In this document: piece by piece, positions 5,018 through 54,828 of the stretch
Layout: the number at the start of each line of letters is the position of its first letter
How positions within the stretch are numbered: the stretch's first letter is position 1
Assembly (NCBI GenBank): GCA_020724885.1
Contig: DYGD01000002.1
Coordinates: 3,038-67,037, forward strand
DNA: 64,000 bases
Direction of reading: 5' to 3'
DNA from: Candidatus Paceibacter sp.
GTDB lineage: Bacteria > Patescibacteriota > Minisyncoccia > Phycocordibacterales > BOKC01
Notes under the pieces: model-generated
Seen by the model: the letters and a program-made list of their open reading frames with translations, nothing else
Databases searched by the model: none
What the model was told of the DNA's origin: nothing
Position numbers and translations under genes: made by a program

Positions 5018-5069
5018 AAAGTTAGAGGTACTTATAGCATAACCGAGATTAAATCACAAATTTTTTTAA

Positions 5070-8764: not shown

Positions 8765-8786
8765 GATGAAACGATCTAACCAGAAG

Positions 8787-12160: not shown

Positions 12161-12289
12161 ATAACTACGGTCTGAACCCAGCTCGCGTACCTTTTTAATT
12201 GGCGAACAGCCAAACCCTTGGAAGCTTCTCCACCTCCAGGATAAGGTGAGCCGACCACTTTCAATCCCCATGTTGCCATGGGAGCAGAC

Positions 12290-13140
12290 TATACCTTTGC
12301 TTATATCCTAACTATAAGCACCAGCGTGTTATGGCAATGTTTTATCAAATTTAATTGAGGCATTTGCCATCTGTTCACTTAAGAACAAGTCGTTACGGGG
12401 CAATACAACCAATCTTGTATTCCATCGGATGGACGATGTATGGTTTTATAAGATTAATCATTTTGAGAGTTTCGGATTTATTTGCATACATCCGAAATCC
12501 TTTGTCACGATCCTTATGGTGAACCATTTGAATACCAAATTTTTTATAAATAGCATTTTCAAGAATTTTTATTTCCTCTAGCACAAAAGAATAAGTGCTG
12601 ATATCAATAATCCCTTTGTTAAAGGATCCGTCGTCCATAATCCATACTGCCATAGATTGAGGATTGAGATCGACTCCGATATCTTTTGGAATTATTTTCC
12701 TACCAACCCTATATCCATCCCCAACATAAAACCTATTGTAGATTTTTGTTAATAATGGATGTCTCACTGTCCTAAACCACCAAGATTTTCGATATTTACT
12801 TCCATTTTCATCATATCGATAACTTATCTTTGGTTCAGTTAGTACCAGGTCTTTCAATACAGAATACTTATACTCTGTATATTCTTTTTGAGCTAATCCC
12901 TGTTCTATTTTGAAGTTAGCATTTACTGCTCCCTTCCCCATTCTCATTGTTCCATCCCCAAGCAAACAACCCACTAAAAGTGAAAGTTGCTCGTCAGTCA
13001 GAAACATTTTTTCTTTAACGGGAATTAAATCCTTGTGCCAATATTTTGTTGCATAGCTTCCCACGGTGTTGACCATACTATAACGCGAATTATAACATGG
13101 CTTTCTCCGTTATGAGCTGATTTAATGTGCATGAAAAATC
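12290..13140 (-). mobile_element. Intron in 23S (near E. coli ~2500, after GGCACCTCGAT) carrying a LAGLIDADG ORF
   Basis: Exon AACAGGCTGGTTCCGCCTAAGAGTCCATATCGACGGCGGAGTTCGGCACCTCGAT is interrupted and resumes at TCGGCTCACC ~12285. Confidence 0.65.
12393..13076 (-). CDS. LAGLIDADG homing endonuclease (intron-encoded)
   Basis: Motifs LLVGCLLGDGTM and AVWIMDDGSF. Confidence 0.8.
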   Translation of the reverse strand: MVNTVGSYATKYWHKDLIPVKEKMFLTDEQLSLLVGCLLGDGTMRMGKGAVNANFKIEQGLAQKEYTEYKYSVLKDLVLTEPKISYRYDENGSKYRKSWWFRTVRHPLLTKIYNRFYVGDGYRVGRKIIPKDIGVDLNPQSMAVWIMDDGSFNKGIIDISTYSFVLEEIKILENAIYKKFGIQMVHHKDRDKGFRMYANKSETLKMINLIKPYIVHPMEYKIGCIAP

Positions 13141-13289
13141 ATACACACGAGAGAATTGTTCGTATTCTCCCCCTCGACATTCGGTATCTATCGAGGTGCC
13201 GAACTCCGCCGTCGATATGGACTCTTAGGCGGAACCAGCCTGTTCATTGTTTTAGCTGGTGAATAGACTATATCATCACCCCGCCTTGG

Positions 13290-14170
13290 CGGGGGACGGC
13301 GTATTAGTATAAATTCTTGTTCGATAGAAATTTATACTCCATTCACAAAAAGTGAATGAGTCGTTACGGGGTCAAAGAGGTGTTTGATTCTCCTAATTTG
13401 TATTGCATTGAAGGTATAACATATTCTCGAATTAGTTCGTGGAGCTTTTTTGTTTCGTTCACTCCAAAAAATAATGCGTAACCCTTCTCTTTTTTGTCGT
13501 AAATTTTTGGTTTTAGGTCAAAATTTTCGACTATTGCATTTTCTAACAATGAAGACTCTTTTTGGGATACTCTGCCGAGATAAATATAGCTAGATTTATC
13601 TCTCAAGTAGTAGTATCCGTCATCCATATACCAAACCGCCAAAGCCAATGGAGCAGTTAATAATTCGGAAATATTTTTCGGCACTTTCTTTTTGCCATCT
13701 TCGTAGAAAATATTTCTCCATTTGCCGATCTCTGGCGAAGCATTGGACTGCCATCGCCAATATCCGTATTGCTTTCTGGTAATCGGATGAATTCTTTCTA
13801 GATGAGACGGTTTTCCTTGGAAAAGGCGCGGGAATTGACTTCCCTTCCAGATTAAATAATCTTTCTGCTTTTCTCCCTGCTCAAATCTAATTCTCGCGTT
13901 TTGAGAACCAGTTTTTTGCAGAAACGCGTCTCCCAACACAGAACCTATTATTATAGATTCCTGCCTTTTGGTTAATTTCATTGTGTTTACATTTTATCAC
14001 CTCTCGACTTCCCACGGGATTGTGCACTCTAAAACTCTTTTGTAAGAGAGACCTGTGCGTTTCCCCCGTTATAAGCCGTTCTTATTCCTGCTCTTGTGGA
14101 TCAAGAAAACAGGAACGCAAGATTTAATCTCGCTTCTCCGCAGATTACTCTGCGGGAGGACAACAAACGC
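13290..14170 (-). mobile_element. Intron in 23S (near E. coli ~2449, after CCCCGGGGA) carrying a LAGLIDADG ORF
   Basis: Exon ...GGATAAAAGCTACCCCGGGGA at ~14171-14200; exon resumes at AACAGGCTGG ~13250. Confidence 0.65.
13364..13981 (-). CDS. LAGLIDADG homing endonuclease (intron-encoded)
   Basis: Motifs IIIGSVLGDAFL and AVWYMDDGYY. Confidence 0.8.
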   Translation of the reverse strand: MKLTKRQESIIIGSVLGDAFLQKTGSQNARIRFEQGEKQKDYLIWKGSQFPRLFQGKPSHLERIHPITRKQYGYWRWQSNASPEIGKWRNIFYEDGKKKVPKNISELLTAPLALAVWYMDDGYYYLRDKSSYIYLGRVSQKESSLLENAIVENFDLKPKIYDKKEKGYALFFGVNETKKLHELIREYVIPSMQYKLGESNTSLTP

Positions 14171-14363
14171 CTTATTTCAGGCGTCATCCCCGGGGTAGCT
14201 TTTATCCGATAATCTTTGGCCGCATCTAAAGCGCGCCAGCGGTTCACTTAGCCCTGCTTTCGCATCTGCTTGAGACGTACCTCTCACAGTTAAGCCAGCT
14301 TATGCCTATACACTATCGGCACGGTTTCCATTCGCGCCTAGCTGACCTTAATGGACTCCTCCG

Positions 14364-14996
14364 TTACTTTTTAGGCAATGTGTTACCCAATTTATATTTC
14401 ATAGAAGGAAGAATGTGCGGCTTAATAAGTTCCTTGAACTTTTTGGCTGACTGAGATTGTATATACAATCTCCAATACTTCCCTTTTTGCTTATGAAGTG
14501 ATGTTTGAAGATCAAACTTATTCTTTAAGATACTCTGAATGCCTTCTAACTCATCTCTACCGTATCCAAGCGTGTGTATTACATATGTTTGATGTCGAGT
14601 AGATTTGAGCGAACCATCATCCATAAACCAGATCGCCAAGCTTAGAGGAGTAAACAACTTCTCAACCACTGTTGGAATAATTTTCTTACCTTCTTGATAA
14701 AAAATCCTTCCAAAACTTCTGAATGCTTCGTGAGAATATGTTCTCACTCCTACATACACCTTTCCATTTTTAACCTTTGTGTATGGTGTGCTTGGTATCC
14801 ATGATTTTAACTCTCGGTAAAGCCATACCAAATATTCATTTTGAGCACCACAGTGTTCAATCTTCAATCTATATGTCTCACCTTTATCCTGAGTCTCAAG
14901 ATGACCGTCTCCAAGTAAAGTGCCAACGATTATTTCTTGCTGGCGCTTCGTCAAGACTAAGCTCTTCTTGAGTTCGCGGATAGCTTTAGTATTCAT
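14364..14996 (-). CDS. LAGLIDADG homing endonuclease (intron-encoded; stop codon lies ~10 nt inside the downstream 23S exon)
   Basis: Motifs IIVGTLLGDGHL and AIWFMDDGSL. Last codons cct aaa aag taa overlap exon sequence CCUAAAAAGUAACGGAGG. Confidence 0.8.
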   Translation of the reverse strand: MNTKAIRELKKSLVLTKRQQEIIVGTLLGDGHLETQDKGETYRLKIEHCGAQNEYLVWLYRELKSWIPSTPYTKVKNGKVYVGVRTYSHEAFRSFGRIFYQEGKKIIPTVVEKLFTPLSLAIWFMDDGSLKSTRHQTYVIHTLGYGRDELEGIQSILKNKFDLQTSLHKQKGKYWRLYIQSQSAKKFKELIKPHILPSMKYKLGNTLPKK

Positions 14997-15355
14997 CGGG
15001 TTCTTGTTTTCACAAGACTCACTGTCGCCAGTGAGATCGGACTATATCTTCATCCTTAATTATAAAGGATGGTTGGTGTTTAGTCTCTACGGGTGTTTAT
15101 GTGCTGGATAGTGAGGGGGAGCGTTAACTGGTAACGCTCCCCCTAGTGAACCCGCCAACATGGTATTTGCCGTAGCATGGAGGACGGGATCCACTATTCA
15201 ACACACAAACTTCCCTCGGAATTGTCTCTTTACAGAGAGTTTTTCCGATATGACCAACTTTTTCCGCCCCGATTCACATCGGGGGGTCCCCCTAATTTGT
15301 TTTTTTCGGAGTCGGAGTAACTCCATGAGGCGCCTGATTTCAAGACACGAAAAAT
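14376..15355 (-). mobile_element. Intron in 23S (domain V region ~E. coli 2250s) carrying a LAGLIDADG ORF; contains a 13-bp GC hairpin (gggggagcgttaac/gttaacgctcccc)
   Basis: Exon GTGGGGCGCTTTCCTTC at ~15356-15372; exon resumes at CCTAAAAAGTAACGGAGGAG ~14376. Boundaries approximate. Confidence 0.55.
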
Positions 15356-15689
15356 CATGTCCTGAAGGAAAGCGCCCCACTTAAACTGCCCACCAGATAA
15401 TGTCCCTTGCCGTTTTTGCCGACGAGGTTAGAACATATCCTTTCACAGAGTGGTATTTCACTGGCGACTCCATGCCGACCGAAACCGGCACTTCAAAGTC
15501 TCCCACCTATGCTACGCAGTAAAAAAATAAGCTCAATATCAAGTTGCAGTAAAGCTCCCGGGGTCTTTTCGTCTAACTGCAGGTAACCGGCATCTTCACC
15601 GGTATTGTATTTTCACCGAGCAAGTCCCCGAGACAGTTGCCCACTCGTTACGCCATTCGTGCACGTCTCTAATTAAGAGACAAGGAATT

Positions 15690-15900
15690 ACGCTCTTCTA
15701 TCCCTTTAACAGAAGGACCATGTCTTCATCTCTGCTTATTAAGCAGAGCGCACGGCGTATGGCCTCTCATATGAGCCGTGATTGGACTATTCTTGTGTCA
15801 CCACAAGAAAGGTAGCTTTCGCATAATTTATTTGTTTATCTCCATAACGATCCCAGTCCTTCTGATTCCCTTAAAAAGAGAATCAGAACCTTAGGATCGT
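15690..15900 (-). mobile_element. ORF-less intron-like insertion (~215 nt) at the classic 23S site 1917 (after CCUAAGGU)
   Basis: Exon GTCGGTCGTAACTATAACGATCCTAAGGT [insert] AGAAGAGCGTAATTCCTTGTC versus contiguous E. coli sequence. Confidence 0.6.
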
Positions 15901-16077
15901 TATAGTTACGACCGACATTCACCAGGGCTTATAACAATCACCAATACATCTTGCGACATATCAACGTCGTTACTTGACCTTCTGGCATTGGTCAGGCGTC
16001 ACCCCCTATACATCCTCTTGCGAGTTCGCAGGGAGCTGTGTTTTTGATAAACAGTCGGCAGGCATACTTTAGCTGCG

Positions 16078-16221
16078 GCCCCCGACACCAACTTTGGCAT
16101 CGTTGCATTGTGTGTTTTCGTAATTTTTGTCGCAATACTTCAGATTTTAAGTAAGAAATTATTACTTACTTTAATCTTTGGAGTTGCAACAAAAACACAA
16201 TGCCAAAGTTGGCGTCGGGGG
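16078..16221 (-). ncRNA. ~145-nt stem-loop insertion / intervening sequence in 23S (variable helix near E. coli ~1720-1750) closed by a 22-bp stem
   Basis: cccccgacaccaactttggcat ... atgccaaagttggcgtcggggg inverted repeat (one G-U); the closing stem and ~40 nt of loop are similar to the element at 18655..18797. Confidence 0.55.
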
Positions 16222-17501
16222 CAGGCCTTATTGCGAACTTACGGCCGCTTTTTTGCCGAGTTCCTTGGGGACCTCTCACTCGTTCGCCTTGGTCTTCTCG
16301 ACCTGACTACCTGTGTCGGTTTTGCGGTACGGTTTGAATCTGCTTAACCTTAGAAGTTTTTCTTGGAAGCGCGCTTTACAAAATTTGATCACCCGAAGGT
16401 TCACATTTTCGTTCTGCTTGGGTTTGTGCCTCCCGGATTTTCCTGGGAAACGCCCTCACAGCGCGAACATAAATCCAATAATATGCTTTGTATACTGCAC
16501 TCCGTCCCTCCATCGAAACAAATTCAAGTCACGGAATATTAACCGTGTGTCCATCACCTTCGGCTTTCGCCATCGGCTTAGGCCCGACTAACCCTTCCCT
16601 GATTATCATCGGGAAGGAAACCTTAGTCTTTCGGCGTCCCGGTTTCTCACCGGGATTGCGGTTACTTGTGCCAACATTCTTACTTCCACACGCTCCAGCA
16701 TGGGTTACCCCTTTGCCTTCAACGCAGAGTGGAATACTCTCCTACCACATGTCAATGCGAAGCACTGACACATCCTCAGTTTCGGTATCATGCTTGAGCC
16801 CCGATTATCTTTGGCGCAAAATCTCTGAATAAGTGAGCTGTTACGCTTTCTTTAAAGGATGGCTGCTTCTAAGCCAACCTCCTTATTGTCAGAGAAATCT
16901 TACAACCTTACGCGCACTTAGCATGAATTTAGGGACCTTAACTAGAGATCTGGGCTGTTTCCCTTTTGACCAATGGAGCTTAGCCCCCACAGTCTAACTG
17001 CCAGATTCTGGCTGCGAGTATTCGGAGTTTGATAGGTTTGACGAGGTTTCCCCCTATTCAAACCTTCCAGTGCTCTACCCCCCGCAGAAACATCTGACGC
17101 TAACCCTAAAGCTATTTCGGAGAGAACCAGCTATTACCAAGTTCGATTAGCTTTTCACTGCTTACCACAAGTCATCCGATGGAGTCGCACGACCAACCGG
17201 TTCGGGCCTCCGCACGCCTTTCGGCGCACTTCACCCTGCTCATGGCAAGATCACTTGGCTTCGGGTCTCATGTATACGACTATTATTTCGCGCTTTTAAC
17301 ACTCGGTTTCCCTGTGGCTCCACCCAGTCAAGGGCTTAGCCAGCCGCATACATAAACTCGTTGGCTCATTCTTCAATAGGCACGCCGTGATGGCTCCCCG
17401 CTTTTGAGTTGTAGAAAACTCTACTTCCCAAAAGTGGGGAGCCACTCCGACTCCTTGTAGGCATATGGTTTCAGGTCTATTTCACCGCCCTCACCGGGCT
17501 G

Positions 17502-17541
<40 letters not shown>

Positions 17542-18625
17542 TCTAACGATATTTAGCCTTACCGGTTAGTTCCGGCAGATTCACCCGAGCTATTGATGTC
17601 TCGAGTTACTCAAGAATAGCAACCAAGGAGTTTTTCTTGTTTTCGCCTACAGGGCTATCACCTCCTGGGGCTTCTCTTTCCAGAGAATTCGGCTAACAAA
17701 AAAATATTTTTTACTCCTCTGGCTAGGCCGTGTTGCTATCTTACAACCCCCCTCCCCAGTTTTGAATTATGGAAATTTCCATATCTCAAAACTGGGGAGG
17801 GGTTTGGGCTCTTTCCTTTTCGCTCGCCGCTACTAAGAAAATTCCTATTGGTCTCTTTTCCTCCGGGTACTGAAATGTTTTACTTCCCCGGGTTTGCATC
17901 TCGAACTGGTCGAGATTTCCGCCAAAAGCGGAAGGGTTTCCCCATTCGGACATCTCCGGATCAAAGGTTGCTAGGCACCTCCCCGAAGCATATCGCCGCC
18001 AAGCCGCGTCCTTCATCGCTCGTTAGAACCTAGGCATCCACCATACGCCCTTGAATTCCCATCAGGAAATTCAAAAACCGCTGTCAATGCGAAGCATTGA
18101 CCGCGGACACACGCAGACAGGACGCAGAAATACGCAGAAATCTAACTCGAAACCACATGGCTACGAATCAAGATTCTGCGACCTTCTGCGTTCGTTCTGC
18201 GATATTCTGCGGTCAGTGCTTCGCACTGACATTTTTGCTCTCTTTTATACAATCAATCTGCGCAAAGCGCAGATTTGCCTGTCCCGAAACCCTATCTTCC
18301 GAAAGAATTCCGGGATAATCTGTCTACAACAAATAAAGACCCCTCGACTACGCTCGGAGTAAACTCCTTAGTAATCAAAAGTTTTGTTGTGACAGGATTT
18401 TGTCTGCGATATCGGGCTATGCCCAACTCGCGGAACTTTTGTCAAACAACATTCCTTCATCCATTCTGGCTCTATCTTCCGGCCAAATTTCTGTTGTTTA
18501 ACAGAAATTTGGCCGAGAGACAAAAAAACCGCCTTTTAAGCGGATTTGACTATCACATAACGATAAAATCACCGTCTCCGCTTGAGTTTTGATATTAAAA
18601 AATTTATTAACATAACTTTATTCTA

Positions 18626-36663: not shown

Positions 36664-38100
36664 TTAATCTTTTCTTGGAAAAAGCGGTTTTTCCGGAATT
36701 TTGTTTTCCTTTACGGCTTTTTTTATTGTATCAGAAGTGATAGGCATTACAGGATTCAACATTCTGCCAATCGTATATAACCCAATCACAAGCTCTTTTA
36801 TAATCTCTTTTGCTTTTTCAGGATCGGTCTTTACCACTTTAAAGGGCTCCGTTTCTTGAATTTTTAAATCAAGCTCTCCTATTTTCTGCCATATGATATT
36901 TGTCGCCCCTTGAATGTTAAATTCGTCCAACGCATCTTTAAAATTTTGAGGAATTGTGTTTTTAGGAATTTCTGGCGCCAACTGCAAATTAGTTTCTGCC
37001 ATCTTCATAACCCTTGAAACCAAATTCCCCAAACCATTGGCGAGGTCGGCATTATAAGCGGTTTTGAATTTTTCAAAAGTAAATTCGCTGTCTTCAAATG
37101 GATGAACATGGCGAGCGAGATAAAAACGCAGAGAGTCGGTGCCATATTCTTTAATAATTTCAAGCGGGTCAATGGTATTGCCCAAGCTTTTGCTCATTTT
37201 TACTGCTCCATCGCCCAAAATAAAGCCGTTTATAATAATTTGCTTACTTGGCGAAAGTTCAGCTGACATTAACATCGCTTGCCACATTGCCGACTGTTGG
37301 CGAAGATTGTCCTTGCCGCAATATTGAGTCACCGGCCACCATTTATTGAATTGCTCTAAATCATTGGGCCAGCCGATTGTCGAAATGTAATTTACCAAAG
37401 CGTCAAACCAGACATACATCACATGATCCGGATCATCCGGCACTTCCACCCCCCAAGGCATTTTGCTTTTTAAGCGGGAAATACTGAAATCTTCAAGTCC
37501 TCTCTCAACAAAACGCCTTATTTCATTGAACCGGAAATCAGGAATCACAAACCCGGGATTTTTCTCGTAAAAATCCAAAAGCGATTTTTGATATTTGGAA
37601 AATCGGAAAAAATAATTTTCTTCCTCAAGAATCTCAATTTCCAACGCGGGGTGCTCGGGACATTTGCCGACAATTAGTTCGGAGTCGGTTTTCTCCAGTT
37701 CACAACCGACGCAGTACTTAATTCTGTAGCTTTTCTTGTATATGTCGCCTTTCCTTTCACAAATTTTCCAAAATTCTTGCGCCGCTTTTTTATGATAAGG
37801 ATCAGTCGTTCTTATAAAATTCAGGTCTTCCGTCATCCCAAGTTTTTTGACAAAACTCTTAAATTTGTCGGCGTATTCATCAACATATTCCTGTGGGTCT
37901 TTTCCTAGCTCAAGCGCTTTGCGATAAATCTTTAAACCATGCTCATCGGTGCCAGTATTAAGAAAAACATCAAAACCGCTTAGTTTTTTGTAGCGTGCGA
38001 TAATATCCGCCCGAACAAATTCCAAAGCATGCCCAAGGTGCGGCTCAGCATTAACATAGGGCAGGGTGGTGGTGATGTAGAAGGTTTTTTCTTGCGCCAC
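36664..38100 (-). CDS. metG: Methionyl-tRNA synthetase
   Basis: HLGHALEFV (HIGH-type) and KMSKSLGN motifs. Confidence 0.95.
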   Translation of the reverse strand: MAQEKTFYITTTLPYVNAEPHLGHALEFVRADIIARYKKLSGFDVFLNTGTDEHGLKIYRKALELGKDPQEYVDEYADKFKSFVKKLGMTEDLNFIRTTDPYHKKAAQEFWKICERKGDIYKKSYRIKYCVGCELEKTDSELIVGKCPEHPALEIEILEEENYFFRFSKYQKSLLDFYEKNPGFVIPDFRFNEIRRFVERGLEDFSISRLKSKMPWGVEVPDDPDHVMYVWFDALVNYISTIGWPNDLEQFNKWWPVTQYCGKDNLRQQSAMWQAMLMSAELSPSKQIIINGFILGDGAVKMSKSLGNTIDPLEIIKEYGTDSLRFYLARHVHPFEDSEFTFEKFKTAYNADLANGLGNLVSRVMKMAETNLQLAPEIPKNTIPQNFKDALDEFNIQGATNIIWQKIGELDLKIQETEPFKVVKTDPEKAKEIIKELVIGLYTIGRMLNPVMPITSDTIKKAVKENKIPEKPLFPRKD

Positions 38101-45041: not shown

Positions 45042-45638
45042 CTAAATCAACTGACTGGCTCGAAGTGATTGGTTTATTTCCTTAATTGCTGCCCGGCGCC
45101 AGGAACTAAAAACATCCAAGTCGCCAGGAGAAATCTTCCGCCCGGACAAAAGACCGCGCCAAGGACCGCCTTCCCCAAGATATCCGAGAGAATCCAGCAA
45201 TTTCAACACAGCTATGCATTCAAAGTTCCTTAGATTATCACCCGTCAATTCATTCTCCAAAAGAAAATGAATATCATTACGAATCACATCAAACAAAAGC
45301 GGGTTTGACTGATCTGCCGGCAATAATTTCAAAAGCAGAGCTGAAAATCTTGAAACAAATAAAACCTTTTCCTTCGATTGCCAGCTAAGTAAAAAATACA
45401 AATTAAAAAAAGTGAAAGCATCGGTAATTTTCCAACCATTCTTGCCTTTAATAAAGGTAAATCTACCGACAGAATAGTCGGTTAAAGCCGGTTTAAGTTT
45501 TGAGTGTGGGGCCCGGGCACTTTGCGCCCGGGCATAAATCAATCCCAACTCGCGAGTAAAAATTTTATATATTTTACTGGCTTCGCCGGAATTAAAATTT
45601 GCCAAAACAAAGCCAGAAGTATGATATTTGTGATACAT
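45042..45638 (-). CDS. recO: DNA repair protein RecO-like
   Basis: N-terminal OB region GFVLANFNSGEASKIYKIFTRELGLIYARAQSAR; size ~200 aa. Confidence 0.55.
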   Translation of the reverse strand: MYHKYHTSGFVLANFNSGEASKIYKIFTRELGLIYARAQSARAPHSKLKPALTDYSVGRFTFIKGKNGWKITDAFTFFNLYFLLSWQSKEKVLFVSRFSALLLKLLPADQSNPLLFDVIRNDIHFLLENELTGDNLRNFECIAVLKLLDSLGYLGEGGPWRGLLSGRKISPGDLDVFSSWRRAAIKEINQSLRASQLI

Positions 45639-48600
45639 TTATAACTCGTCCAACTTAATGCCGCTTTCAGCGAACTTAATTTTAACTTTAGTCTGTCTGT
45701 AAATTTCTTTCTCCGAACCGCTTATAAAATTTTCCAAACCACGGTCAAAGACAAATTCAACTTCTTCGTTCGGTTTTAGATTTTTTTTCTTTCTTAAATC
45801 TTGAATCTGGCGAATAAGATCTCTTAGGAGTCCTTTCTTTTTCAATTCAGGAGTGATATTGGTATCAAGCATAACATCATTTTCTTGGCTTGAATCAAAA
45901 ACAATAATTTCAACATTAACCTCATCCTTAATGATTTTTAATAAATCCTCTAAGTATTTTAAATTTTCGTCTTTTAAGATCAGCTTTCCTAAAGGTTGGC
46001 GCACTTTTACACCTGCTCTAGCTCTGGCCTCAAGCGCCTTAGAAGTAATTTGTCTTACAATTTTCATGTCTTCAATTATCTTTTGATCAACCTCGCCCGC
46101 TACTGGCCAGTTTTCCAAATGGACACTTTCTTTTTTGCCTACAAAGTTCAGCTCCTGATAAATCCGCTCGGCTAAAAACGGCGTAAACGGGGCCATGAGT
46201 TTTGAAAGCTCAAGCAAAACAAAGCTCAATGTCTCCACCGCCTCTCTTCGGCTGTCTTCTGCTCTAAATCTGTCTCGCGAGCGGCGAACATACCAAGTTG
46301 AAAAATCGTCAACAAAATCAGCTATCGGACGCGTCGCTCTATCAAGCTCGTAATTTTCCAAAGATTTTGTAATTTCTTTGATCAGCTGATTGAGCCGCGC
46401 GAGAACCCATCCATCCAAAACATTTTTAGAATTTGTAGCGACACTGGCTGCCAACCCCTGATTTTCATACAACTTGTAAAACTGCAAGACATTTCCGAGA
46501 CGCAAAAGAACCTTTTGCATTGTTTCTTGCACTCCTTTTTCCGAAAAATTTAAGTCCTGGCCACGGACGACCGGCGAAGACAGGAGGTACAGACGTAGCG
46601 CATCGGCGCTATATTTGTTTGCAACCTCCAAAGGGTCTGGGTAATTCTTCAGCCGCTTGGACATTTTTTGCCCGTCTTCCGCCAAAATTGTTCCGTTAAC
46701 CACAACCGTTTTATAGGAACTTTTGCCGAAAAGTAAAGTGCCTAAAACAAGCATTGAATAAAACCAACCGCGGGTTTGGTCAAGGCCTTCGGCGATAAAA
46801 TCGGCCGGATAACCTTTAGACCTTCGCAAAAATCCGGACTTAGGATTAAATTCAATAAGATTTTCAAAAGGATAATGTTTTTGGGCGTAAGGCATTGAAC
46901 CGGATTCAAACCAGCAATCAAAAACTTCCGGCACCCTCTTCATCTTGCTACCGCACCTGCAAGACAACTTTATTTCATCAATAAACGGCCGGTGCAATTC
47001 AAGCTCAAAATTTTCATTTCTGGGCAAAGGAGAATATTCTATTTCTTTAAACTGGCCGGTCGTAACATAATCTTCATACTTGTCTTTAACTCTGGCCGAA
47101 GTTTTGCTGTCCCAACCCAAGGCGCCCGCTTCCATCATCCAAATCGGATATTCATGACTGACAACTAAAATAGTTTTATTTTTAAACCGTTTTTCCAAAT
47201 CGGTAAGAAAATTGCAAACTCTGATTTTAACATCTAGCAAATTTTCACCGTCGGGCGGTCTTTTGGAAAACTTTTCCAAAGTAGAAGAAAAATGTTTTCT
47301 GTATTCTTCAATCGGACGAAGATTAAATTCACCGGAATTTATTTCTCTGATTCTCTCGTCAAAAATTATTTTTTCTTTTGGAAATCCTGTTTCGGAAGCG
47401 ATAATTTCGGCCGTTTCCCTAGTTCTGGCAAAGTCAGAAGAAAAAATGGTGTCTATTTTCTTGCCTCTAAGTTTGGCGGCAACGGTTTGCGCTTCTTGCC
47501 TGCCCTTCTCGGTCAGATTATGCGGATTCTCCGGTCGGCCGCTAACAATGTTTTTAGCATTGCTTTCAGCCTCGCCGTGGCGAATCAAAATATAGCGATT
47601 ACCACTTTTTTCACAATTTGCTGAAAGCTCGCCCACCGAACCAACAAATTTTTTTTCCTCGCATTTTTCGCATTCCCAAACTGGAATCGGCGCGCCCCAA
47701 AAACGACTGCGAGAAATTGACCAATCTTTGGCCTCCGAAAGCCAATTGCCGAAGCGATATTTGCCGACCTCTTCCGGCACCCACCTGATTTTTTTATTTT
47801 CCGAAACCAGCTTTTCGCGATGTTTTGAGACCTCAACAAACCACGAGTTTGAGCCGTAGTTCAAAAGTGGCGTGTCGCAACGCCAGCAGTGAGGATAAGA
47901 ATGCGAAACTTTTCTCTTTGAGAATAAGAGTCCTTTATGCGCTAGATGTTTTATAATTTCAATGTCGGTTTTTTGATTGTCCTCTTTCGGCTTCGCGCTC
48001 ATTCCGGAAAATTCCTCAATCTCCGACTTAAATTTGCCACTAATATCCACATGCTGAACGAATGGTAAATTTTCTCTGCGTTGCAATTCATAATCTTCCG
48101 AGCCGAAAGCCGGCGCGACGTGAACAATGCCCGTCCCCTCTTCAAGAGAAACGAAATCGGCACTGTAAACCTTCCAGCCGTTTTCTCGGCTTTTTAGTTT
48201 TTTGTCACTTGAGTAATAATCAAAAAGTGGCTCGTATTCAAGACCAATTAATTTCTTGCCTTTGAATTCTTCAACAATTTCAAATCTTTTATCAGCAAAA
48301 ATTTCCTCCGCCCGATTTTTGGCAACAACATACTCTCCGTCTTCAAGTTTTGCTTTGACATAATCAATGTCAGAATTAACCGCTAAAGCGACATTCCCCG
48401 GCAATGTCCACGGTGTTGTCGTCCAAGCTAGCAAGTAAGTTTTGCCGTGTTTTGGAATTTCGAATTTGGAATTTATTTGTGATTTGGCGCTTGTGATTTG
48501 GAATTTAGCAACAACTGATATATCAGTCACGTCGCGATATCCTTGTGCAACTTCAAAGTTGGAAAGAGTGGTTTCGCAACGCGGACAAAGGTGCATTGAC

Positions 48601-49157
48601 TTAAATCCCTCATACACCACACCTTTTTGAAAAAGGGTTTTGAAAGCCCACCAGACCGACTCGGTGTAGGTCCAGTCCATTGTCCGGTAGTCGTTTTCCA
48701 TATCCACCCACCGGCCGAAGCGCGGAATTTGTTTGCGCCACTCATCGGCATAACGCAAAACGCTTTCGCTAGCAATTTGATTAAATTTGTCCAATCCGTA
48801 GTCAATTATTTCTTTTTTTGACTTCAGATTTAGCTCGCCTTCAACCAAGTTTTCAACCGGTAGGCCATGGCAATCCCAGCCCCACCGTCTCGGCACATAG
48901 TAACCTTGCATAGTTTTGAAACGAGGAATAACATCTTTTATCGTTCCGGCCAAAATATGGCCGTAGTGCGGCAAGCCGGTCGCAAAAGGCGGTCCGTCAT
49001 AAAATATAAACTCCTTGCCCGCAGAAGCTATGGCTTTGGCGGGACCTATTGGAGATGTCTTCTGCAGAGTTTTTTCAAAAATTTTATTTTCCCGCCAAAA
49101 TTGTAGAATTTCTTCCTCATTTTCCGAAAGCGGGTTTTTCTTAGTTTCTTCGGGCAT
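45639..49157 (-). CDS. ileS: Isoleucyl-tRNA synthetase with an internal histidine-phosphatase (phosphoglycerate-mutase family) domain insertion
   Basis: HIGH-type PHYGHIL, KMSKRLKN. Between ...GAPIPVWECEKCE and ...RCGSKMKRVPEVFDCWFESGSMPYAQ lies a ~220-aa insertion with ILIRHGEAESN, SSDFARTRETAEII and VVSHEYPI motifs. Confidence 0.9.
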   Translation of the reverse strand: MPEETKKNPLSENEEEILQFWRENKIFEKTLQKTSPIGPAKAIASAGKEFIFYDGPPFATGLPHYGHILAGTIKDVIPRFKTMQGYYVPRRWGWDCHGLPVENLVEGELNLKSKKEIIDYGLDKFNQIASESVLRYADEWRKQIPRFGRWVDMENDYRTMDWTYTESVWWAFKTLFQKGVVYEGFKSMHLCPRCETTLSNFEVAQGYRDVTDISVVAKFQITSAKSQINSKFEIPKHGKTYLLAWTTTPWTLPGNVALAVNSDIDYVKAKLEDGEYVVAKNRAEEIFADKRFEIVEEFKGKKLIGLEYEPLFDYYSSDKKLKSRENGWKVYSADFVSLEEGTGIVHVAPAFGSEDYELQRRENLPFVQHVDISGKFKSEIEEFSGMSAKPKEDNQKTDIEIIKHLAHKGLLFSKRKVSHSYPHCWRCDTPLLNYGSNSWFVEVSKHREKLVSENKKIRWVPEEVGKYRFGNWLSEAKDWSISRSRFWGAPIPVWECEKCEEKKFVGSVGELSANCEKSGNRYILIRHGEAESNAKNIVSGRPENPHNLTEKGRQEAQTVAAKLRGKKIDTIFSSDFARTRETAEIIASETGFPKEKIIFDERIREINSGEFNLRPIEEYRKHFSSTLEKFSKRPPDGENLLDVKIRVCNFLTDLEKRFKNKTILVVSHEYPIWMMEAGALGWDSKTSARVKDKYEDYVTTGQFKEIEYSPLPRNENFELELHRPFIDEIKLSCRCGSKMKRVPEVFDCWFESGSMPYAQKHYPFENLIEFNPKSGFLRRSKGYPADFIAEGLDQTRGWFYSMLVLGTLLFGKSSYKTVVVNGTILAEDGQKMSKRLKNYPDPLEVANKYSADALRLYLLSSPVVRGQDLNFSEKGVQETMQKVLLRLGNVLQFYKLYENQGLAASVATNSKNVLDGWVLARLNQLIKEITKSLENYELDRATRPIADFVDDFSTWYVRRSRDRFRAEDSRREAVETLSFVLLELSKLMAPFTPFLAERIYQELNFVGKKESVHLENWPVAGEVDQKIIEDMKIVRQITSKALEARARAGVKVRQPLGKLILKDENLKYLEDLLKIIKDEVNVEIIVFDSSQENDVMLDTNITPELKKKGLLRDLIRQIQDLRKKKNLKPNEEVEFVFDRGLENFISGSEKEIYRQTKVKIKFAESGIKLDEL
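46985..47615 (-). other. Histidine phosphatase (RHG branch-1) domain inserted in IleS (aa ~505-725)
   Basis: RHGE[ST]xxN, SSDxxRxxxTA and SHE motifs in order. Confidence 0.7.
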
Positions 49158-49349: not shown

Positions 49350-49622
49350 TGTTGTGTGTGAAGCGCCGTCCGTGCCACCACCCAGCGTGAATGATTTTTA
49401 TCAATCTTCTGGATTGAATCTTATGCCGCATCTCAAATGCGAGAGCGCTTCAAACCAAGTTCCTTCATTTTTTGAAGTTACCCGCATACCACTCTCCCTG
49501 AAGCCTTGACCACAGGAACTCTCGATATACGGATACTGGTTTCGGTAGCCGGAAGCCGTAACCGCCGGTAACTATTCACCTAATACCGCTTTTATTTATA
49601 TCAAATTTTTTGAGGTACGAAA

Positions 49623-49643
49623 ATGCCGCGCACTGCGTGCGCG
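49623..49643 (-). promoter_or_regulatory. GC hairpin gccgcgcac-tgc-gtgcgcggc ~70 nt downstream of VR (candidate DGR-associated hairpin/cruciform)
   Basis: 9-bp perfect GC stem read from sequence; role inferred from position relative to VR. Confidence 0.4.
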
Positions 49644-49697
49644 GCACAAGATCCAATGGCCAAAGTGCCAAAGCACAGAAACCAAAGGATCAAGAGT

Positions 49698-50249
49698 TCA
49701 AAAATCAAAGGAACTTGCGAGGAGAGCGGGGCAGTCCCGGCGCCAGTCGTCGCCGAGCCAGCGCCAGAGGACCAAGACGCGGTCGCCGTACCAGACGAGG
49801 TAGGCAACCCTGCGACGGCCGCCGGACTCCCGGACAGAACCCCACAGGGAAACCACCTTGTCTTTGAACTCGTCCGGGTAAGTCGTCGGATTGTCGAGCC
49901 AGCCCTTGACCTCCGGGCTCTCCAATGAGCTAGCGCGCTTGATCATACCGGTCTGATCAAGATGTCTAAAGAGTTCAAATCCATCAATCACCCCTCCGCC
50001 TTCTTGTGTTGGATGGAAGTAGAGTTCGTAATCAGGAGGCATCAGCGCCTCGCGAAGCGTTCTGGTGAGAGAACCCTGATTTGTGATCCATCCCTGGGCC
50101 ACATCAGGATCCATGTCTCGAGGCAGACCCCGCGCAACCGCAGACATCAGTTCAGAGAACTGATCAATTCCCATCAGTCCTCCCCGTCCTTCTTTCTTTT
50201 TCCTACCCATTCCGAATTCTCCTTTCTGGCTTACCTCTGATTCGGCCAC
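49698..50249 (-). CDS. DGR target protein with C-terminal variable region (GC-rich gene; probable start at Met26, 50174, preceded by GGAGG)
   Basis: C-terminus ESGGRRRVAYLVWYGDRVLVLWRWLGDDWRRDCPALLA corresponds to TR-encoded ESGGNRKVAYLIWNGNRVKVNWNWLDNDWNRNNPALLA; no signal peptide. Confidence 0.75.
   Translation of the reverse strand: MAESEVSQKGEFGMGRKKKEGRGGLMGIDQFSELMSAVARGLPRDMDPDVAQGWITNQGSLTRTLREALMPPDYELYFHPTQEGGGVIDGFELFRHLDQTGMIKRASSLESPEVKGWLDNPTTYPDEFKDKVVSLWGSVRESGGRRRVAYLVWYGDRVLVLWRWLGDDWRRDCPALLASSFDF
49715..49830 (-). repeat. DGR variable repeat (VR), 116 bp, 3' end of target gene
   Basis: Aligned base-for-base with TR; ~22 mismatches, every one at a TR adenine (coding strand), e.g. 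AAT->CGT, AAC->TAC/GAC/CTC/CGC/TGC, AAG->TTG; ends with GC-rich CCCCGCTCTCCTCGCAA (IMH-like). Confidence 0.85.
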
Positions 50250-50331
50250 AAGCCAAACTTAAGGCATACCATTTTTTCCGAGCTGGAGTATAACATAAAG
50301 TATCCCAAAATGTCAAATAGAAAAGTTCTAT

Positions 50332-50431: not shown

Positions 50432-51754
50432 TTAGTACAGAGTCCGCCAAGCATAGTTATTTGTCGCGTCTTTGGCACAAACAGAAACATTGTCTTTTAC
50501 ACCGGTTGCTCCTTGCTCAAACCAAAAAGTGCCACGGAAAGTCACCGAGCAAGCGGGCCTGGTATTTGCCGGAGGTAAGACCTTTACTCCACCGCTAACC
50601 TCCAACTTGGTCCCCGGATTGGTTGTGCCGATGCCAATATTTCCATTGCTATTTATCATAAACTCCGGGATCTGGCTTTGATCTTGTCTGATAGTAAAAG
50701 AACCCTGGCGAGTGCCGTCATTACTTACTTCCCAATTTCCTTCTCTGTTTACTAGTTTAACCAAAGAATTTTCTTGGACACCTCCAGATTCTATTAAAAT
50801 ACCCGACCAACCATCCGGACGGAAAATATGTAGTTTAAAAACTGGTTGAGTAGTACCTAATCCGACATTACCATTCGGAGCTATTCTTAAATGCTCTGCA
50901 TTATTAGTGCCTAAGCGAAGATAGCCGTTTTCATAATTCCAAATGGTGGCATTTACTTGATTATTGTTTACTCCAACCAACAAACCATCGTTTGCGCCAT
51001 GTCCGGTCACATTGTTAGTAAACAACGCGGAACTTTCACCTGTGCCATCAACAGCGACATGAAGTTTTCTAAAAGGATTTTCTGTGCCAATACCCAGCTG
51101 GCCTTCAAAAGAACTGTTATTATTTAGATACTGCCTAAAACTGCCGACCGAGACAACTCCTTGTCCAAAAGTGCTAATACCAAAAACTCCAGTGCCATGT
51201 TGACTAGACCCCATTATTCCCTTTCCAAACTCGCTAACTCCTTTTATTCCTGCTCCTGCGATAAAAGGGTTTTTACTATATCCATATATAGCAGTAGGAG
51301 TCTCCGGGCCGTTAGGACCATCTACTTCTTCTACCGCAACTACCTCTAATTTTATCGGGAGAGGTGGTGTCCAGTCATCGCCAATATGAACCAGTCCGCC
51401 AAAGTTTTTTAGAAAACTATCCGCCACCCACTTCTTACCATCACACCTGACTGTTTGCCCTAATATTCCAACCGGAAGAGGTGTCTGACCGCACAAACTT
51501 TTCACATCCACCGGGTCCACTCTATTTAACAAGTCATCTTTTTGTTCAATTAAGCGATGGGTATCTGCCTGTGTTTGATTAGATAATTGCGCCGGACGAA
51601 GCAACCTGACATTGGTTACTTGGCCCAAAAAATTTCCCATCAATTCTTGAAATCGCTCTAGCAAAGTCGCTTGTTCAGCTTGATTTTGAGCATTAACCGG
51701 AAGAAAAGGAAGAACCATGCCTAAAACCAAAACTGCCATTAAAAATTTTTTCAT
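50432..51754 (-). CDS. Secreted protein with tail-fibre-like repeats (GxxGIGTTNPxxKLxV) upstream of DGR target
   Basis: Signal peptide MKKFLMAVLVLGMVLPFLPVNAQ; repeats NGNVGLGTTQPVFKLHI and NGNIGIGTTNPGTKLEV. Confidence 0.5.
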   Translation of the reverse strand: MKKFLMAVLVLGMVLPFLPVNAQNQAEQATLLERFQELMGNFLGQVTNVRLLRPAQLSNQTQADTHRLIEQKDDLLNRVDPVDVKSLCGQTPLPVGILGQTVRCDGKKWVADSFLKNFGGLVHIGDDWTPPLPIKLEVVAVEEVDGPNGPETPTAIYGYSKNPFIAGAGIKGVSEFGKGIMGSSQHGTGVFGISTFGQGVVSVGSFRQYLNNNSSFEGQLGIGTENPFRKLHVAVDGTGESSALFTNNVTGHGANDGLLVGVNNNQVNATIWNYENGYLRLGTNNAEHLRIAPNGNVGLGTTQPVFKLHIFRPDGWSGILIESGGVQENSLVKLVNREGNWEVSNDGTRQGSFTIRQDQSQIPEFMINSNGNIGIGTTNPGTKLEVSGGVKVLPPANTRPACSVTFRGTFWFEQGATGVKDNVSVCAKDATNNYAWRTLY

Positions 51755-51799: not shown

Positions 51800-53518
51800 C
51801 TACATTTTCTCCGGCACCTCAATCCCCAATAGCCACAATCCATTTTGGAGAGTAATAAAAACCGCTTCGGTTAAGGCAATTTTATAAGGAGAATTTTTGT
51901 CTGTTTTATCCACAATTTTTTCTTTAGCGTAAAAGCCGTTGAACTCGCCGGCCAGCTCAATCAAATATGTAGCCAATTTTTGCGGCGCAAATTCTTTCGC
52001 CGCCTCTTCCACCACTTCCGGAAACTTATAAAGTAATCTTTCTACATTATTTATCTCCGTTGATTCAGAATTGGCAGACGGCTTAATCTTTTCCTGCCCG
52101 GCTTTTTCTAAAACTGATTTGGCGCGCACCGCCGAATACTGCAAGTACGGACCGGAGTCGCCCTCAAACGAGAGCGATTTTTCAAAATCAAAAACAATAT
52201 TTTTGCCCGGCGCTTGTTTTAAAATTGAATACTTGAGCGCGGCAACGGCAACTTTGTCGGCAACATCTTCTTTATTTTCTATCTCACGCTCCGCCATTTT
52301 TTGAAGAGCCAGATTATGAAGCTGATTTAAAAGCTCTTCCCCGCCAATGATGTTGCCGGTCCGCGAAGACATCCGGCCTTCGGAAAGACGCAAGCGACCG
52401 TGAGACAAGTGTTCAATTTTTCCTTTGAGTTTAGGAAAAACAAATTCAGACGCTTTAACAACCACTTTATAATATTCGGACTGCTCAACATCGGTAACAG
52501 TAATGGAACGGTCAAATTTAAAAAACTTGCGCTTCAATTCAATTAACCCTAAATCTTTAGCTTCATAAGTCGGCAGGCCTTCGGAATTTATGAAAACGCG
52601 GGTGTGAAGGCCTGATTTCTCACCAGATAAAATTATTGCATTTTCACTTTTCTCAAACATGCCTTCAGCTAAAAATTTGGCGACCAATTTCCGGCCGACT
52701 TCTCCCGCTTCGCTTTCAAAAAAACTGGCGTCAAATTTGCTACCGAGCCGAGTGTAAATTTTTTTAAAATGACTAAGAGAGAGCTCCAGTCCTTTTTTAT
52801 AAATTTCGTTTATCTCCGGGTCGCTCTGTTCGTAGATTTTTTTGTTTATTTCTACAATTTCTTTTCTAGCTGCCTCATCTGCTTCATAAGCTCTATCCCC
52901 TTCCGCATACGCTTTTCCAAGAATTTCTATCGTAAGCTGTTGACTGCTCGTTGTAGAGGTTGTTGGTTGTAGAGGTTGTTGGTTGATTAATGCCCAAACC
53001 ACCTTGGCAACATGAAGCCCGACATCGCCGTGATAAGTCGCTCTTTTAAGTTTTGGCCCTTCCGCTTCAATAAGGCGAGAAACTGCTTCACCGACAATGT
53101 TGTTTACCAAGTGGCCAATATGAAAAACTTTAAAAGGATTCGGCTGGGTGTATTCAATTATTATTTTCTGTCCAACTAGATTCTTGTTCAAACCAAAATC
53201 TTTTTTCTCTTTTAGAATTTCTTTTGTTGAAGAAATAAAAAAATCTTTTGAAAGATAAAAATTTATAAATCCCGGCCCGGCGATTTCGATTTTTTGCAAA
53301 AAATCGAAATCGCCCTGGGTTCGCCGAAGAATAGACACGATTTTCTCCGCCAACTCTCTTGGGTTTTTGCCTAAATCTTTGGCATATAAAAGCGAAACAT
53401 TGGATGAAAAATCGCCGTGAGAAATTTCGGCCGGGTGCTCAAGCTCCACTTTTGGATTTTCTACCCCAAAATCTTCCAGCGCCCTCTTTATTAAATTTTC
53501 CAATTTTTCTTTAATCAC
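51800..53518 (-). CDS. argS: Arginyl-tRNA synthetase (carries an in-frame repeat insertion QQPLQPTTSTTSSQQ)
   Basis: HIGHLVNNIVGEAVSRL (HIGH) and MSSRTGN (KMSKS-equivalent) motifs. Confidence 0.9.
   Translation of the reverse strand: MIKEKLENLIKRALEDFGVENPKVELEHPAEISHGDFSSNVSLLYAKDLGKNPRELAEKIVSILRRTQGDFDFLQKIEIAGPGFINFYLSKDFFISSTKEILKEKKDFGLNKNLVGQKIIIEYTQPNPFKVFHIGHLVNNIVGEAVSRLIEAEGPKLKRATYHGDVGLHVAKVVWALINQQPLQPTTSTTSSQQLTIEILGKAYAEGDRAYEADEAARKEIVEINKKIYEQSDPEINEIYKKGLELSLSHFKKIYTRLGSKFDASFFESEAGEVGRKLVAKFLAEGMFEKSENAIILSGEKSGLHTRVFINSEGLPTYEAKDLGLIELKRKFFKFDRSITVTDVEQSEYYKVVVKASEFVFPKLKGKIEHLSHGRLRLSEGRMSSRTGNIIGGEELLNQLHNLALQKMAEREIENKEDVADKVAVAALKYSILKQAPGKNIVFDFEKSLSFEGDSGPYLQYSAVRAKSVLEKAGQEKIKPSANSESTEINNVERLLYKFPEVVEEAAKEFAPQKLATYLIELAGEFNGFYAKEKIVDKTDKNSPYKIALTEAVFITLQNGLWLLGIEVPEKM
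52950..52985. repeat. Tandem 18-mer repeat gttgtagaggttgttgg x2 inside argS, shared with intergenic repeat at 32981..33012
   Basis: Exact 18-mer match between the two loci. Confidence 0.75.
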
Positions 53519-54004: not shown

Positions 54005-54828
54005 TAACGACATCGTAAGTCATTATTTTTTAATCTTCCAAAATTAAATCCTTAATATCAAAAATATTCTCTGAGTCAAGCTCTTTCAACCATTCGGCTA
54101 TACCTTTTTTGTAATTTTTTGCTCCACCCCAGAAATCATTTAAAAGATTGCGTTGAGTTACTGAAGGGAAATTTTTATTGTCCATATAATCCAGATGGCT
54201 AGACCAGCGATAACTGTTTAAAAATTTCATAGCTTCGCGGACACTTCTTAATTCTCCGCTTCGCCATTCTTTAAATTTTAGATCAAGTGGATTCAAATGA
54301 ATATAGTATGGTAGATGAATAAAATGAGCATCGTTATTAACAATAATTGACTTATATCTTCCTTCAAATAAGGTGCCCGTTCTTTTATAACGTTCGTTGA
54401 AATACTTAGCGTAGCCGATATTTAATTTTTTCATAAACTGCGAAATGCCTCGCTCTATTCTCGGTCGCAGAAGCAAGTGGTAGTGATTAGGCATCAAACA
54501 AAAAGCAAGAAGATCAACCAGTAATTTTCTCGGTCGCTTTTTCACATTAATATGATGACTTACGATGTTGTTATTTTGAGAAAAGCGGTGAAATGAATTA
54601 TTTACCGGTTGTTGATCGTTAAATTCAAATAAGTCGTGGATAAATCTCATTCGATCACGATCATCCATAAAAATTTTTCGTCGATCAACACCCCGACTCA
54701 AAACATGATAAATCTCGCTCATATCATATTATGACAATTAATCTTTTTTTATTTAAATAATTTGATTTCTTTTAAATTTTAACCAAATTAATAATAACAT
54801 ACCACTACAACAAACATAACGACTTACG
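54005..54828 (-). mobile_element. IS200/IS605-family-like insertion sequence (Y1 HUH transposase plus subterminal palindromic ends)
   Basis: Near-identical imperfect palindromes ataacgacatcgtaagtcattat (54005..54027) and ataacgacttacgatgtcattat (54806..54828; reverse-complement-related) flank the tnpA ORF; element ~0.82 kb. Confidence 0.6.
54030..54722 (-). CDS. tnpA: IS200-like / REP-associated tyrosine (Y1 HUH) transposase
   Basis: N-terminal YHVLSRGVDRRKIF, HUH motif HYHLLL, downstream EGRYKS tyrosine. Confidence 0.7.
   Translation of the reverse strand: MSEIYHVLSRGVDRRKIFMDDRDRMRFIHDLFEFNDQQPVNNSFHRFSQNNNIVSHHINVKKRPRKLLVDLLAFCLMPNHYHLLLRPRIERGISQFMKKLNIGYAKYFNERYKRTGTLFEGRYKSIIVNNDAHFIHLPYYIHLNPLDLKFKEWRSGELRSVREAMKFLNSYRWSSHLDYMDNKNFPSVTQRNLLNDFWGGAKNYKKGIAEWLKELDSENIFDIKDLILED

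Follow-up and report, generated by a model that had tools for sequence, protein, structure and literature searches.

The isoleucyl-tRNA synthetase (IleRS) gene, ileS, of a tiny-genome member of the Patescibacteria, a Candidatus Paceibacter sp. (contig DYGD01000002.1), encodes a branch-1 histidine phosphatase nested inside the synthetase. We analysed a 64,000-nucleotide stretch of this contig (positions 3,038 to 67,037, hereafter the window), in which ileS occurs once, within a block of housekeeping genes. The phosphatase and IleRS form a conserved pair that takes two layouts, neighbouring genes or a nested domain, and the two were never found together in the loci examined. Tentatively, at a probability of about 0.4, we read this pairing as functional, with the phosphatase acting on a phosphomonoester met at IleRS that may be RNA- or tRNA-linked, a nucleotide or a phospho-protein. 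A first-pass annotation made from the letters of the window had marked the module at 46985-47615 without giving a strand. These positions correspond to residues 515-724 on the minus strand, and the peptides it quoted are all found in the minus-strand open reading frame (ORF) at 45639..49157 (FWGAPIPVWECEKCE at residues 486-500, ILIRHGEAESN at 523-533, SSDFARTRETAEII at 574-587, VVSHEYPI at 665-672 and a 26-residue IleS block at 734-759).

The host synthetase and its inserted domain

The fused gene is laid out below in window positions, with residues (aa) numbered along the protein. Ortholog counts, here and throughout, refer to an alignment of 121 full-length sequences, 53-78% identical.

45639..49157, minus strand: ileS ORF, 1172 aa, a type-2 (eukaryote/archaea-like) IleRS with nested phosphatase (uninterrupted ORF, Pfam, NCBIfam, alignment, model)
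47619..49157, minus strand: N-terminal part of IleRS, aa 1-513, with the first half of the Rossmann domain, the connective peptide (CP) core, the CP1 editing domain, CP2 and the start of CP3
48957-48968, minus strand: HIGH motif, here HYGH, aa 64-67
47661..47672, minus strand: first cysteine pair of the CP3 zinc knuckle, CEKC, aa 496-499
47007..47618, minus strand: inserted module, 204 aa, aa 514-717, absent from solved IleRS and from the insert-less IleRS of sister lineages
47091..47591, minus strand: His_Phos_1 (PF00300) match, aa 523-689, Pfam E=1.5e-36
47574..47582, minus strand: RHG motif with R526, nucleophile H527 and G528, in 121/121 orthologs
47424..47426, minus strand: R578, second phosphate-binding arginine, in 121/121 orthologs
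47343..47345, minus strand: E605, general acid/base, in 121/121 fusion orthologs
47154..47156, minus strand: H668, second catalytic His, in 121/121 orthologs; the clade-specific motif SH-x-x-P-I-W follows
46953..46961, minus strand: second cysteine pair of the CP3 zinc knuckle, CRC, aa 733-735
45639..47006, minus strand: C-terminal part of IleRS, aa 718-1172 and stop, with the remainder of CP3, the second half of the Rossmann domain carrying KMSKR, the anticodon-binding domain and DUF5915
46653-46667, minus strand: KMSKS motif, here KMSKR, aa 831-835

The host is a true IleRS and, as its intact synthetic and editing motifs predict, a functional one. Pfam resolves the 1172-residue ORF into a split tRNA-synt_1, Anticodon_1, DUF5915 and His_Phos_1, and the isoleucine--tRNA ligase equivalog TIGR00392 scores 897.1 bits against a cutoff of 621.4, in two stretches that flank the insert. 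The CP1 editing motifs (TTTPWT at 246-251, GTG-x-VH and D355) are all present. TTTPWT and D355 are kept in 118-120 of the 121 orthologs, and HYGH, KMSKR, TTTPWT and D355 taken together are kept in 107-120 or show conservative variants only. An AlphaFold2 model of the full-length protein (mean predicted local distance difference test score, pLDDT, 85; predicted TM score, pTM, 0.76; insert blocks at pLDDT 93-96) superposes on IleRS2 and yeast IleRS (Foldseek E ~1e-78; TM to target 0.75-0.83). The mupirocin-resistance models for MupA and MupB (NF000257/NF000258) score 754-757 bits against an 'exception' cutoff of 1900, and the kinship to these proteins that such scores suggest is at the level of type-2 IleRS only. 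Because the synthetase and editing motifs are intact as well, one polypeptide is predicted to bear three active sites: synthetic, editing and phosphatase.

An assembly chimera, frameshift-joined genes or a mis-called ORF might create such an architecture, and metagenome assemblies carry a general risk of all three. The ORF is uninterrupted, however, its identical 1172-residue sequence is recorded from NCBI, JGI and Logan assemblies, the protein is modelled confidently as a single fold, and hundreds of independent assemblies have the same architecture. We give an artefact practically no credence and consider it ruled out by the single ORF and its independent recurrence.

Alignment with P. megaterium IleRS2 (8c8u) places the insertion precisely. 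Residues 8-513 of the query correspond to 8-476 of the solved chain and residues 718-1141 to 485-900, so that the ~204 residues from 514 to 717 stand where 8c8u has ~8. The insert falls between the CEKC and CRC pairs, whose four cysteines are at least 90% conserved among the closer orthologs of the alignment. In C. albicans IleRS, CP3 comprises residues 473-534, about 60 aa, and the CP3 of T. thermophilus IleRS bears a zinc-binding motif, with both topology and zinc motif varying among IleRSs (PMC7191050). Since these boundaries and this motif place both cysteine pairs in CP3, the phosphatase is nested in a peripheral CP3 subdomain, between the halves of the zinc knuckle, in a surface loop. 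The first-pass annotation had recognised a branch-1 module with its motifs in order, inserted in the synthetase and not appended to it, and Pfam, the 8c8u alignment and the fold search agree. Its statement that canonical IleS has only a short connective peptide at this position does not hold, as the site is the zinc-binding subdomain just described. Some fusions, P0004, P0007-P0010 and P0225, have lost the cysteines of the knuckle on both sides of the insert (e.g. VWKDTVTGE ... VELVSAAGN) and have kept the phosphatase.

Histidine phosphatases work in two steps, via a phospho-histidine enzyme. The inserted domain (126.3 bits to PF00300, whose gathering score is 21.7, over profile positions 2-168 of 194) is apparently active, as every residue for this mechanism is retained. 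Presumably H527 attacks the phosphomonoester, whose phosphate is held by R526, R578, H668 and N533, and E605 first donates a proton to the leaving group and later activates water. N533 is also invariant, in 121 of 121 orthologs. The insert is the fastest-evolving part of the whole protein, with a median identity to the query of 44%; the remainder of the protein reaches 60% and the catalytic core 72%. Because seven catalytic residues are invariant while the rest of the insert diverges, the pattern in the alignment is a signature of selection on catalysis.

This pattern bears on the idea that the fold serves as a structural, binding or regulatory module, for example a phospho-ligand sensor that tunes IleRS. 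There is precedent for it, in that histidine-phosphatase folds elsewhere are non-catalytic or of unclear role, as in the TFIIIC tau55 domain. However, a pure ligand sensor would have no need of an acid/base residue, and seven catalytic and phosphate-binding residues would hardly be kept in all orthologs of a domain that has otherwise drifted so far. The catalytic residues are also kept in a stand-alone family of relatives, where the only changes are E to D and N to Q, and the RH(G/A) motif persists in the tandem copies that were checked (both described below). We regard a non-catalytic module as quite improbable.

Modelled alone, the insert (pLDDT 93, pTM 0.89) adopts the alpha/beta phosphoglycerate-mutase-like fold, and Foldseek aligns it at probability 1.00 and target-normalised TM 0.72-0.80 to PspA (4ij5/4ij6), PhoE (1h2e) and CobC (6e4b). 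Phosphatases rank above mutases in this search, and PspA, PhoE and CobC are also the best matches at the sequence level, where the riboflavin-pathway HFP 9mmh and the small S. pombe 2,3-bisphosphoglycerate-dependent phosphoglycerate mutase (dPGM) 1fzt also appear. The insert falls far below the cutoffs of the CobC model TIGR03162 (88.4 vs 162.9), the PspA model NF045917 (84.1 vs 350) and the dPGM equivalogs NF038349, PRK01295, PRK01112 and PRK03482 (96.6 vs 225, 49.7 vs 316, 43.7 vs 320 and 71.1 vs 261). Its best NCBIfam His_Phos match is dPGM_arch. After the catalytic glutamate, dPGM enzymes have the pattern E-R-H-Y-G...K and PhoE-type enzymes G-x-F/W-D/E-G-K; the insert has the latter. By fold and sequence, then, the domain is a branch-1 histidine phosphatase, predicted to be a PhoE/PspA/CobC-like phosphomonoesterase and not recognisable as a phosphoglycerate mutase (PGM). 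The label 'phosphoglycerate-mutase family' in the first-pass annotation stands as the name of a superfamily and fails as the name of an activity.

It has been reported that PGM is absent from some Parcubacteria clades (Jaffe et al., PMC7304191), and a domain of this superfamily could take over the missing dPGM step of lower glycolysis in those clades for which a PGM gene has not been detected. Database labels lean the same way: UniProt names the stand-alone relative A0A1G2ETB8 'Phosphoglycerate mutase', and dPGM_arch and 1fzt are among the matches of the insert. However, the stand-alone forms, like the insert, lie far under all dPGM equivalog cutoffs, the motif after the catalytic glutamate is of the wrong type, phosphatases outrank mutases in the fold search, and the RNA-binder-like charge of the stand-alone form meets no obvious need in a glycolytic enzyme. 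A replacement mutase is improbable on this balance.

One pair in two layouts

The fusion is the norm in a very large clade within the candidate phyla radiation (CPR), the Parcubacteria/Paceibacteria-type Patescibacteria. Among the full-length matches listed from 8000 scored, 120 of 120 contain PF00300, and their source names include Patescibacteria, Parcubacteria, Paceibacterota, Magasanik-, Wolfe-, Niyogi- and Yonathbacteria. When each GTDB species was represented by one genome, at least 556 species proved to encode the insert together with both IleRS flanks, and an exhaustive search of representatives placed the domain at the same position, ~485-710, in proteins of ~1150-1200 aa. Query length apparently mattered: a homolog search with a 275-aa query returned only proteins shorter than 480 aa, and the full-length query revealed the complete fusions. 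Three checks that the first-pass annotation had proposed, a His_Phos_1 domain search, a structure prediction of the full protein and a survey of orthologous IleS, bear out its observation. The editing- or alarmone-related activity that it suggested is neither favoured nor disfavoured by these results; the CP1 editing motifs are complete without the insert. Its description of the arrangement as unusual is apt in relation to characterised IleRS but not within this clade.

Variants of the fusion also occur. Two, three or four tandem His_Phos_1 domains stand at the CP3 site in P0197, P0321, P0243, P0291, P0296 and P0331, and each copy has the RH(G/A) motif, which was the motif inspected. In P0165 (Patescibacteria, 1325 aa, named 'GNAT family N-acetyltransferase') a GNAT domain at aa 285-415, in the CP1 region, accompanies His_Phos_1 at 664-827. 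A set of ~915-980-aa proteins with the phosphatase at ~260-470 was considered as a possible class of IleRS without editing domain and rejected, as P0225 proved to be an N-terminally truncated gene call that starts at query residue 274.

The nearest non-fused relatives of the insert are proteins of ~187-199 aa from Nealsonbacteria and other Parcubacteria, such as P0019, P0392 (= A0A1G2ETB8) and P0342 (Parcubacteria DG_72). They are 38-46% identical to the insert and share with it the motifs SH-x-x-P-I-W and F-x-K-R-P-P-x-G-E. Their acid/base residue is Asp in 92%, Gln replaces N533, and the other catalytic residues are kept. In a neighbour-joining distance tree of 203 domains the inserted and stand-alone families form neighbouring clusters. 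Its internal branches are very short, and it is compatible with capture of the gene by ileS as well as with release of the domain from it.

We sampled five lineages with the stand-alone gene on long contigs (L081, L084, L085, L086 and L087). In four of the five it is found upstream of a gene called as an IleRS of 931-960 aa that lacks the insert. The two genes are directly adjacent in L085, L086 and L087, with gaps of 1-11 bp. In L081 a gene for an NYN-domain (LabA-like RNase) protein at 8561-9097 stands between them, with a 4-bp overlap at the stop of the phosphatase gene; its match to the PADLOC NYN model is weak, and the other four loci lack it. No gene is called downstream in L084, where a candidate 907-aa ORF overlaps the end of the phosphatase gene by 4 bp. 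One of the insert-less IleRS in these lineages passes TIGR00392 (718.7 vs 621.4). The L081 IleRS is 46-48% identical to the window IleRS, with an alignment that runs to query residue 511 and resumes at 704, so that precisely the insert is missing.

A common block surrounds the pair. All five sampled loci have SmpB, ArgRS, His_Phos_1, (IleRS), a small ORF, RecO, a DUF7619-like protein and a class II aminoacyl-tRNA synthetase (aaRS), and the window has the same block in the form of ArgRS ... IleRS, RecO, a 654-aa protein, a class II aaRS and an M16 peptidase. Its members next to ileS are:

51800..53518, minus strand: argS (ArgRS), block member on the upstream side of ileS; sister lineages have the stand-alone phosphatase gene between the two
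45042..45638, minus strand: recO-like gene, downstream member of the block, abutting the ileS stop codon

At 80 of 80 fusion loci there is exactly one His_Phos match, the one inside ileS, and no separate copy within ±6 kb. In 51 of the 80 the ArgRS gene is found upstream in the same orientation, and in ~20 loci the gap between the ArgRS gene and ileS is under 70 bp, which means that the slot of the stand-alone gene is empty there. It is this shared syntenic slot, together with the lack of a second copy at any of the 80 fusion loci, that leads us to treat phosphatase and IleRS as one conserved pair.

The argS-ileS interval can hold other genes as well. In L085, a Nealsonbacteria-like contig, an RVT_1 reverse transcriptase and a bAvd-like gene lie at 4597-5959 between argS and the stand-alone phosphatase gene; the two together are the hallmark of a diversity-generating retroelement. 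In the window, a high-GC island at ~49450-50250 (GC 0.53-0.58 against ~0.42 around it) lies just upstream of ileS and holds a 183-aa ORF (49698-50249, minus strand) with no Pfam match. An adjoining 440-aa ORF (50432-51754) also lacks a match, and its protein has a homolog in one of 80 related loci. These two ORFs occupy the argS-ileS slot that holds the stand-alone phosphatase gene in sister lineages, and the region may be a recent foreign insertion.

The free and inserted forms differ in charge. The stand-alone family has a median isoelectric point of 9.96 and a median net charge of +18.8, against a median charge of ~0 for inserted domains. With genes of the same loci as controls, the stand-alone phosphatase carries +8 to +15 charges per 100 aa, as compared with +9 to +13 for SmpB, +7 to +12 for IF3, +0.7 to +6 for ArgRS and IleRS, +0.7 for a NUDIX enzyme and +0.5 for a transporter. 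The stand-alone phosphatase is thus as basic as the RNA-binding proteins of the same genomes. Its extra positive charge is concentrated in segment 618-637 beside the active site, which we take to be the lid that extends from the acid/base residue towards the GE motif and shapes the substrate pocket. The free protein may have to locate a polyanionic partner (RNA or tRNA) unaided, with IleRS delivering the nested one. Alternatively, the free and inserted forms may have diverged in substrate.

What the phosphatase may do at IleRS

On our favoured reading, the phosphatase would meet a phosphorylated substrate at the synthetase and would act on it by a chemistry separate from aminoacylation and editing. 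The most plausible substrates would be a phosphate on, or bound with, tRNA(Ile) or another RNA, a nucleotide, or phosphorylated IleRS itself. Tethering to IleRS might replace the intrinsic affinity for polyanions that the free, very basic form needs.

The strongest competing explanation, and a real possibility, is that the domain is a hitch-hiking metabolic enzyme, a phosphomonoesterase for small metabolites whose gene was captured from next door into a permissive and variable CP3 loop, with the fusion ensuring co-expression only and leaving IleRS function unaffected. The folds and sequences closest to the insert are those of small-molecule phosphatases (PspA, a phosphoserine phosphatase; PhoE; CobC; 9mmh), which fits this view. 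Both the topology and the zinc motif of CP3 are variable (PMC7191050), the fusions that have lost the CP3 cysteines keep their insert, and a GNAT enzyme is tolerated at another IleRS site in the same clade. The insert evolves faster than its host, and the 2-4-copy arrays with RH(G/A) throughout are as expected of diversifying enzymes. However, a hitch-hiker would leave unexplained why the free form has the charge density of an RNA binder when a NUDIX enzyme encoded at that locus is neutral, why phosphatase and ileS have stayed associated in two layouts across lineages with IleRS proteins only 46-48% identical, and why no separate copy lies near any fusion locus. On these grounds we weakly favour a phosphatase that works with IleRS or tRNA.

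Several observations weigh against a role at the synthetase. The nearest solved relatives of the insert are small-molecule phosphatases, and to our knowledge no histidine phosphatase acts on RNA ends. The stand-alone gene and ileS are neighbours inside a larger housekeeping block that is itself conserved, so that their adjacency may be historical and not functional. Tandem arrays fit a cargo enzyme better than a precisely positioned one. In the inserted domains the acidic residues E531, E581 and E669, absent from the free form, stand beside the catalytic motifs, so that polyanion binding by the inserted form is not suggested. Among the aaRS examined here the domain was seen in IleRS only, and the yeast IleRS-tRNA paper names CP3 in a list of domains only, not as an element that contacts tRNA.

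A narrower and unlikely version of a synthetase-directed role is repair or anti-toxin activity, in which the phosphatase would strip a blocking phosphate so that charging resumes. Its target might be tRNA(Ile) whose CCA end is blocked by a 3'-phosphate or a pyrophosphate, or IleRS that a kinase toxin has phosphorylated. It would act in trans, as a basic RNA-binding protein, in the Nealsonbacteria-like lineages and in cis, delivered by IleRS, where nested. Of these marks, the pyrophosphate is documented as part of a toxin and antiphage mechanism: the toxSAS FaRel2 pyrophosphorylates the 3'-CCA of tRNAGly and tRNAThr and blocks their aminoacylation (PMC11559606). The intact catalytic set, the two-layout pairing with ileS and the charge of the free form appear compatible with such repair without supporting it specifically. 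PADLOC gave no defence-system match for the insert or for the stand-alone P0019.

The aaRS rank with the most conserved enzymes known. It is rare, and usually informative, for a new catalytic domain to be nested in their cores, as the editing domains illustrate. Here hundreds of species in a major and poorly understood bacterial radiation have kept a third, apparently active centre in IleRS, and the occurrence of the same enzyme as a neighbouring gene where it is unfused offers a concrete, testable functional link to IleRS or tRNA(Ile). If the substrate is linked to RNA or to the synthetase, the fusion would be a new layer of translation quality control or toxin resistance; under the repair view, an aaRS able to erase blocking marks by an activity of its own would represent a new principle. 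If the substrate is metabolic (the PGM reaction, phosphoserine and the like), the domain would close a gap in the metabolic reconstructions of CPR bacteria, from which enzymes buried within other genes are at present missing. Annotation as 'isoleucine--tRNA ligase' alone conceals an enzyme. UniProt, for example, records a fusion from a GW2011 genome (A0A0G1NYW1) as plain 'Isoleucine--tRNA ligase'. Literature searches aimed at the fusion yielded no account of a phosphatase within IleRS or any other bacterial aaRS. The fusion has stood in public databases since the GW2011 genomes, unremarked and uncharacterised, while the joining of an aaRS with an accessory enzyme domain is as such already known.

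Neighbouring features and comparison with known systems

Elsewhere in the window, an IS200-like Y1 transposase gene (PF01797, E=1.7e-10) lies at 54030-54722 on the minus strand, between argS and a dUTPase gene. A MetRS-like ORF (36664-38100, minus strand; tRNA-synt_1g) encodes 478 aa, short for a bacterial MetRS. The rRNA genes (23-1903 and 11369-18050, minus strand) are interrupted in CPR style, with ~9.7 kb between 16S and 23S. The 16S match spans only 1065-1903, yet model positions 1-1533 are covered, and it overlaps a group I intron call at 23-1174. The 23S matches in four pieces (11569-11813, 12178-12253, 15370-15550 and 15608-18050). A group I intron occupies 15018-15367, and a gap of ~2.8 kb at 12254-15017 is unmatched; a 5S gene lies at 11369-11474. 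ARAGORN found no tRNA gene in the whole 64-kb window, the surroundings of the rRNA genes included.

The closest counterparts of the host are the solved type-2 IleRS of P. megaterium (IleRS2, 8c8u), T. thermophilus (1ile), yeast (7d5c) and C. albicans (6ldk), to which the homology is full-length (E ~1e-215 to 1e-206). The window IleRS shares their fold, HIGH, KMSKS and CP1 editing motifs and has Thermus-type cysteine pairs in the CP core and CP3. Where the solved enzymes have ~8 residues and no catalytic domain, it has a ~204-aa enzyme domain.

Second enzyme domains in an aaRS have precedents. LysX joins LysRS to MprF, and the ileS_w_GNAT family (NF040702) shows that an IleRS can carry an unrelated enzyme domain. 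The window protein scores 302 against the NF040702 cutoff of 1999 and has no Pfam match to GNAT, and the GNAT of P0165 sits at CP1 and not at CP3.

On the phosphatase side, the insert shares with PspA (4ij5), PhoE/YhfR (1h2e, 1ebb) and CobC (6e4b, 6nru) the fold, the size (a core of ~190-200 aa) and the RHG...R...E...H set. Its identity to them is only 21-32%, it lies below every NCBIfam equivalog cutoff, and its two clade motifs set it apart; unlike them, its clade is nested in, or encoded beside, IleRS. The bifunctional RNase H/acid phosphatases of the Rv2228c type (NF005567) likewise join a CobC-like phosphatase to a nucleic-acid enzyme. The insert matches the phosphatase half of that model at 88.6 bits, far under the cutoff of 326, and the Rv2228c-type fusion is end-to-end with its RNase H partner where the IleRS fusion is nested. 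Nearest of all is the stand-alone family beside ileS, which has the syntenic slot and clade motifs of the insert and differs from it as a separate, very basic protein with an Asp acid/base and Gln for N533.

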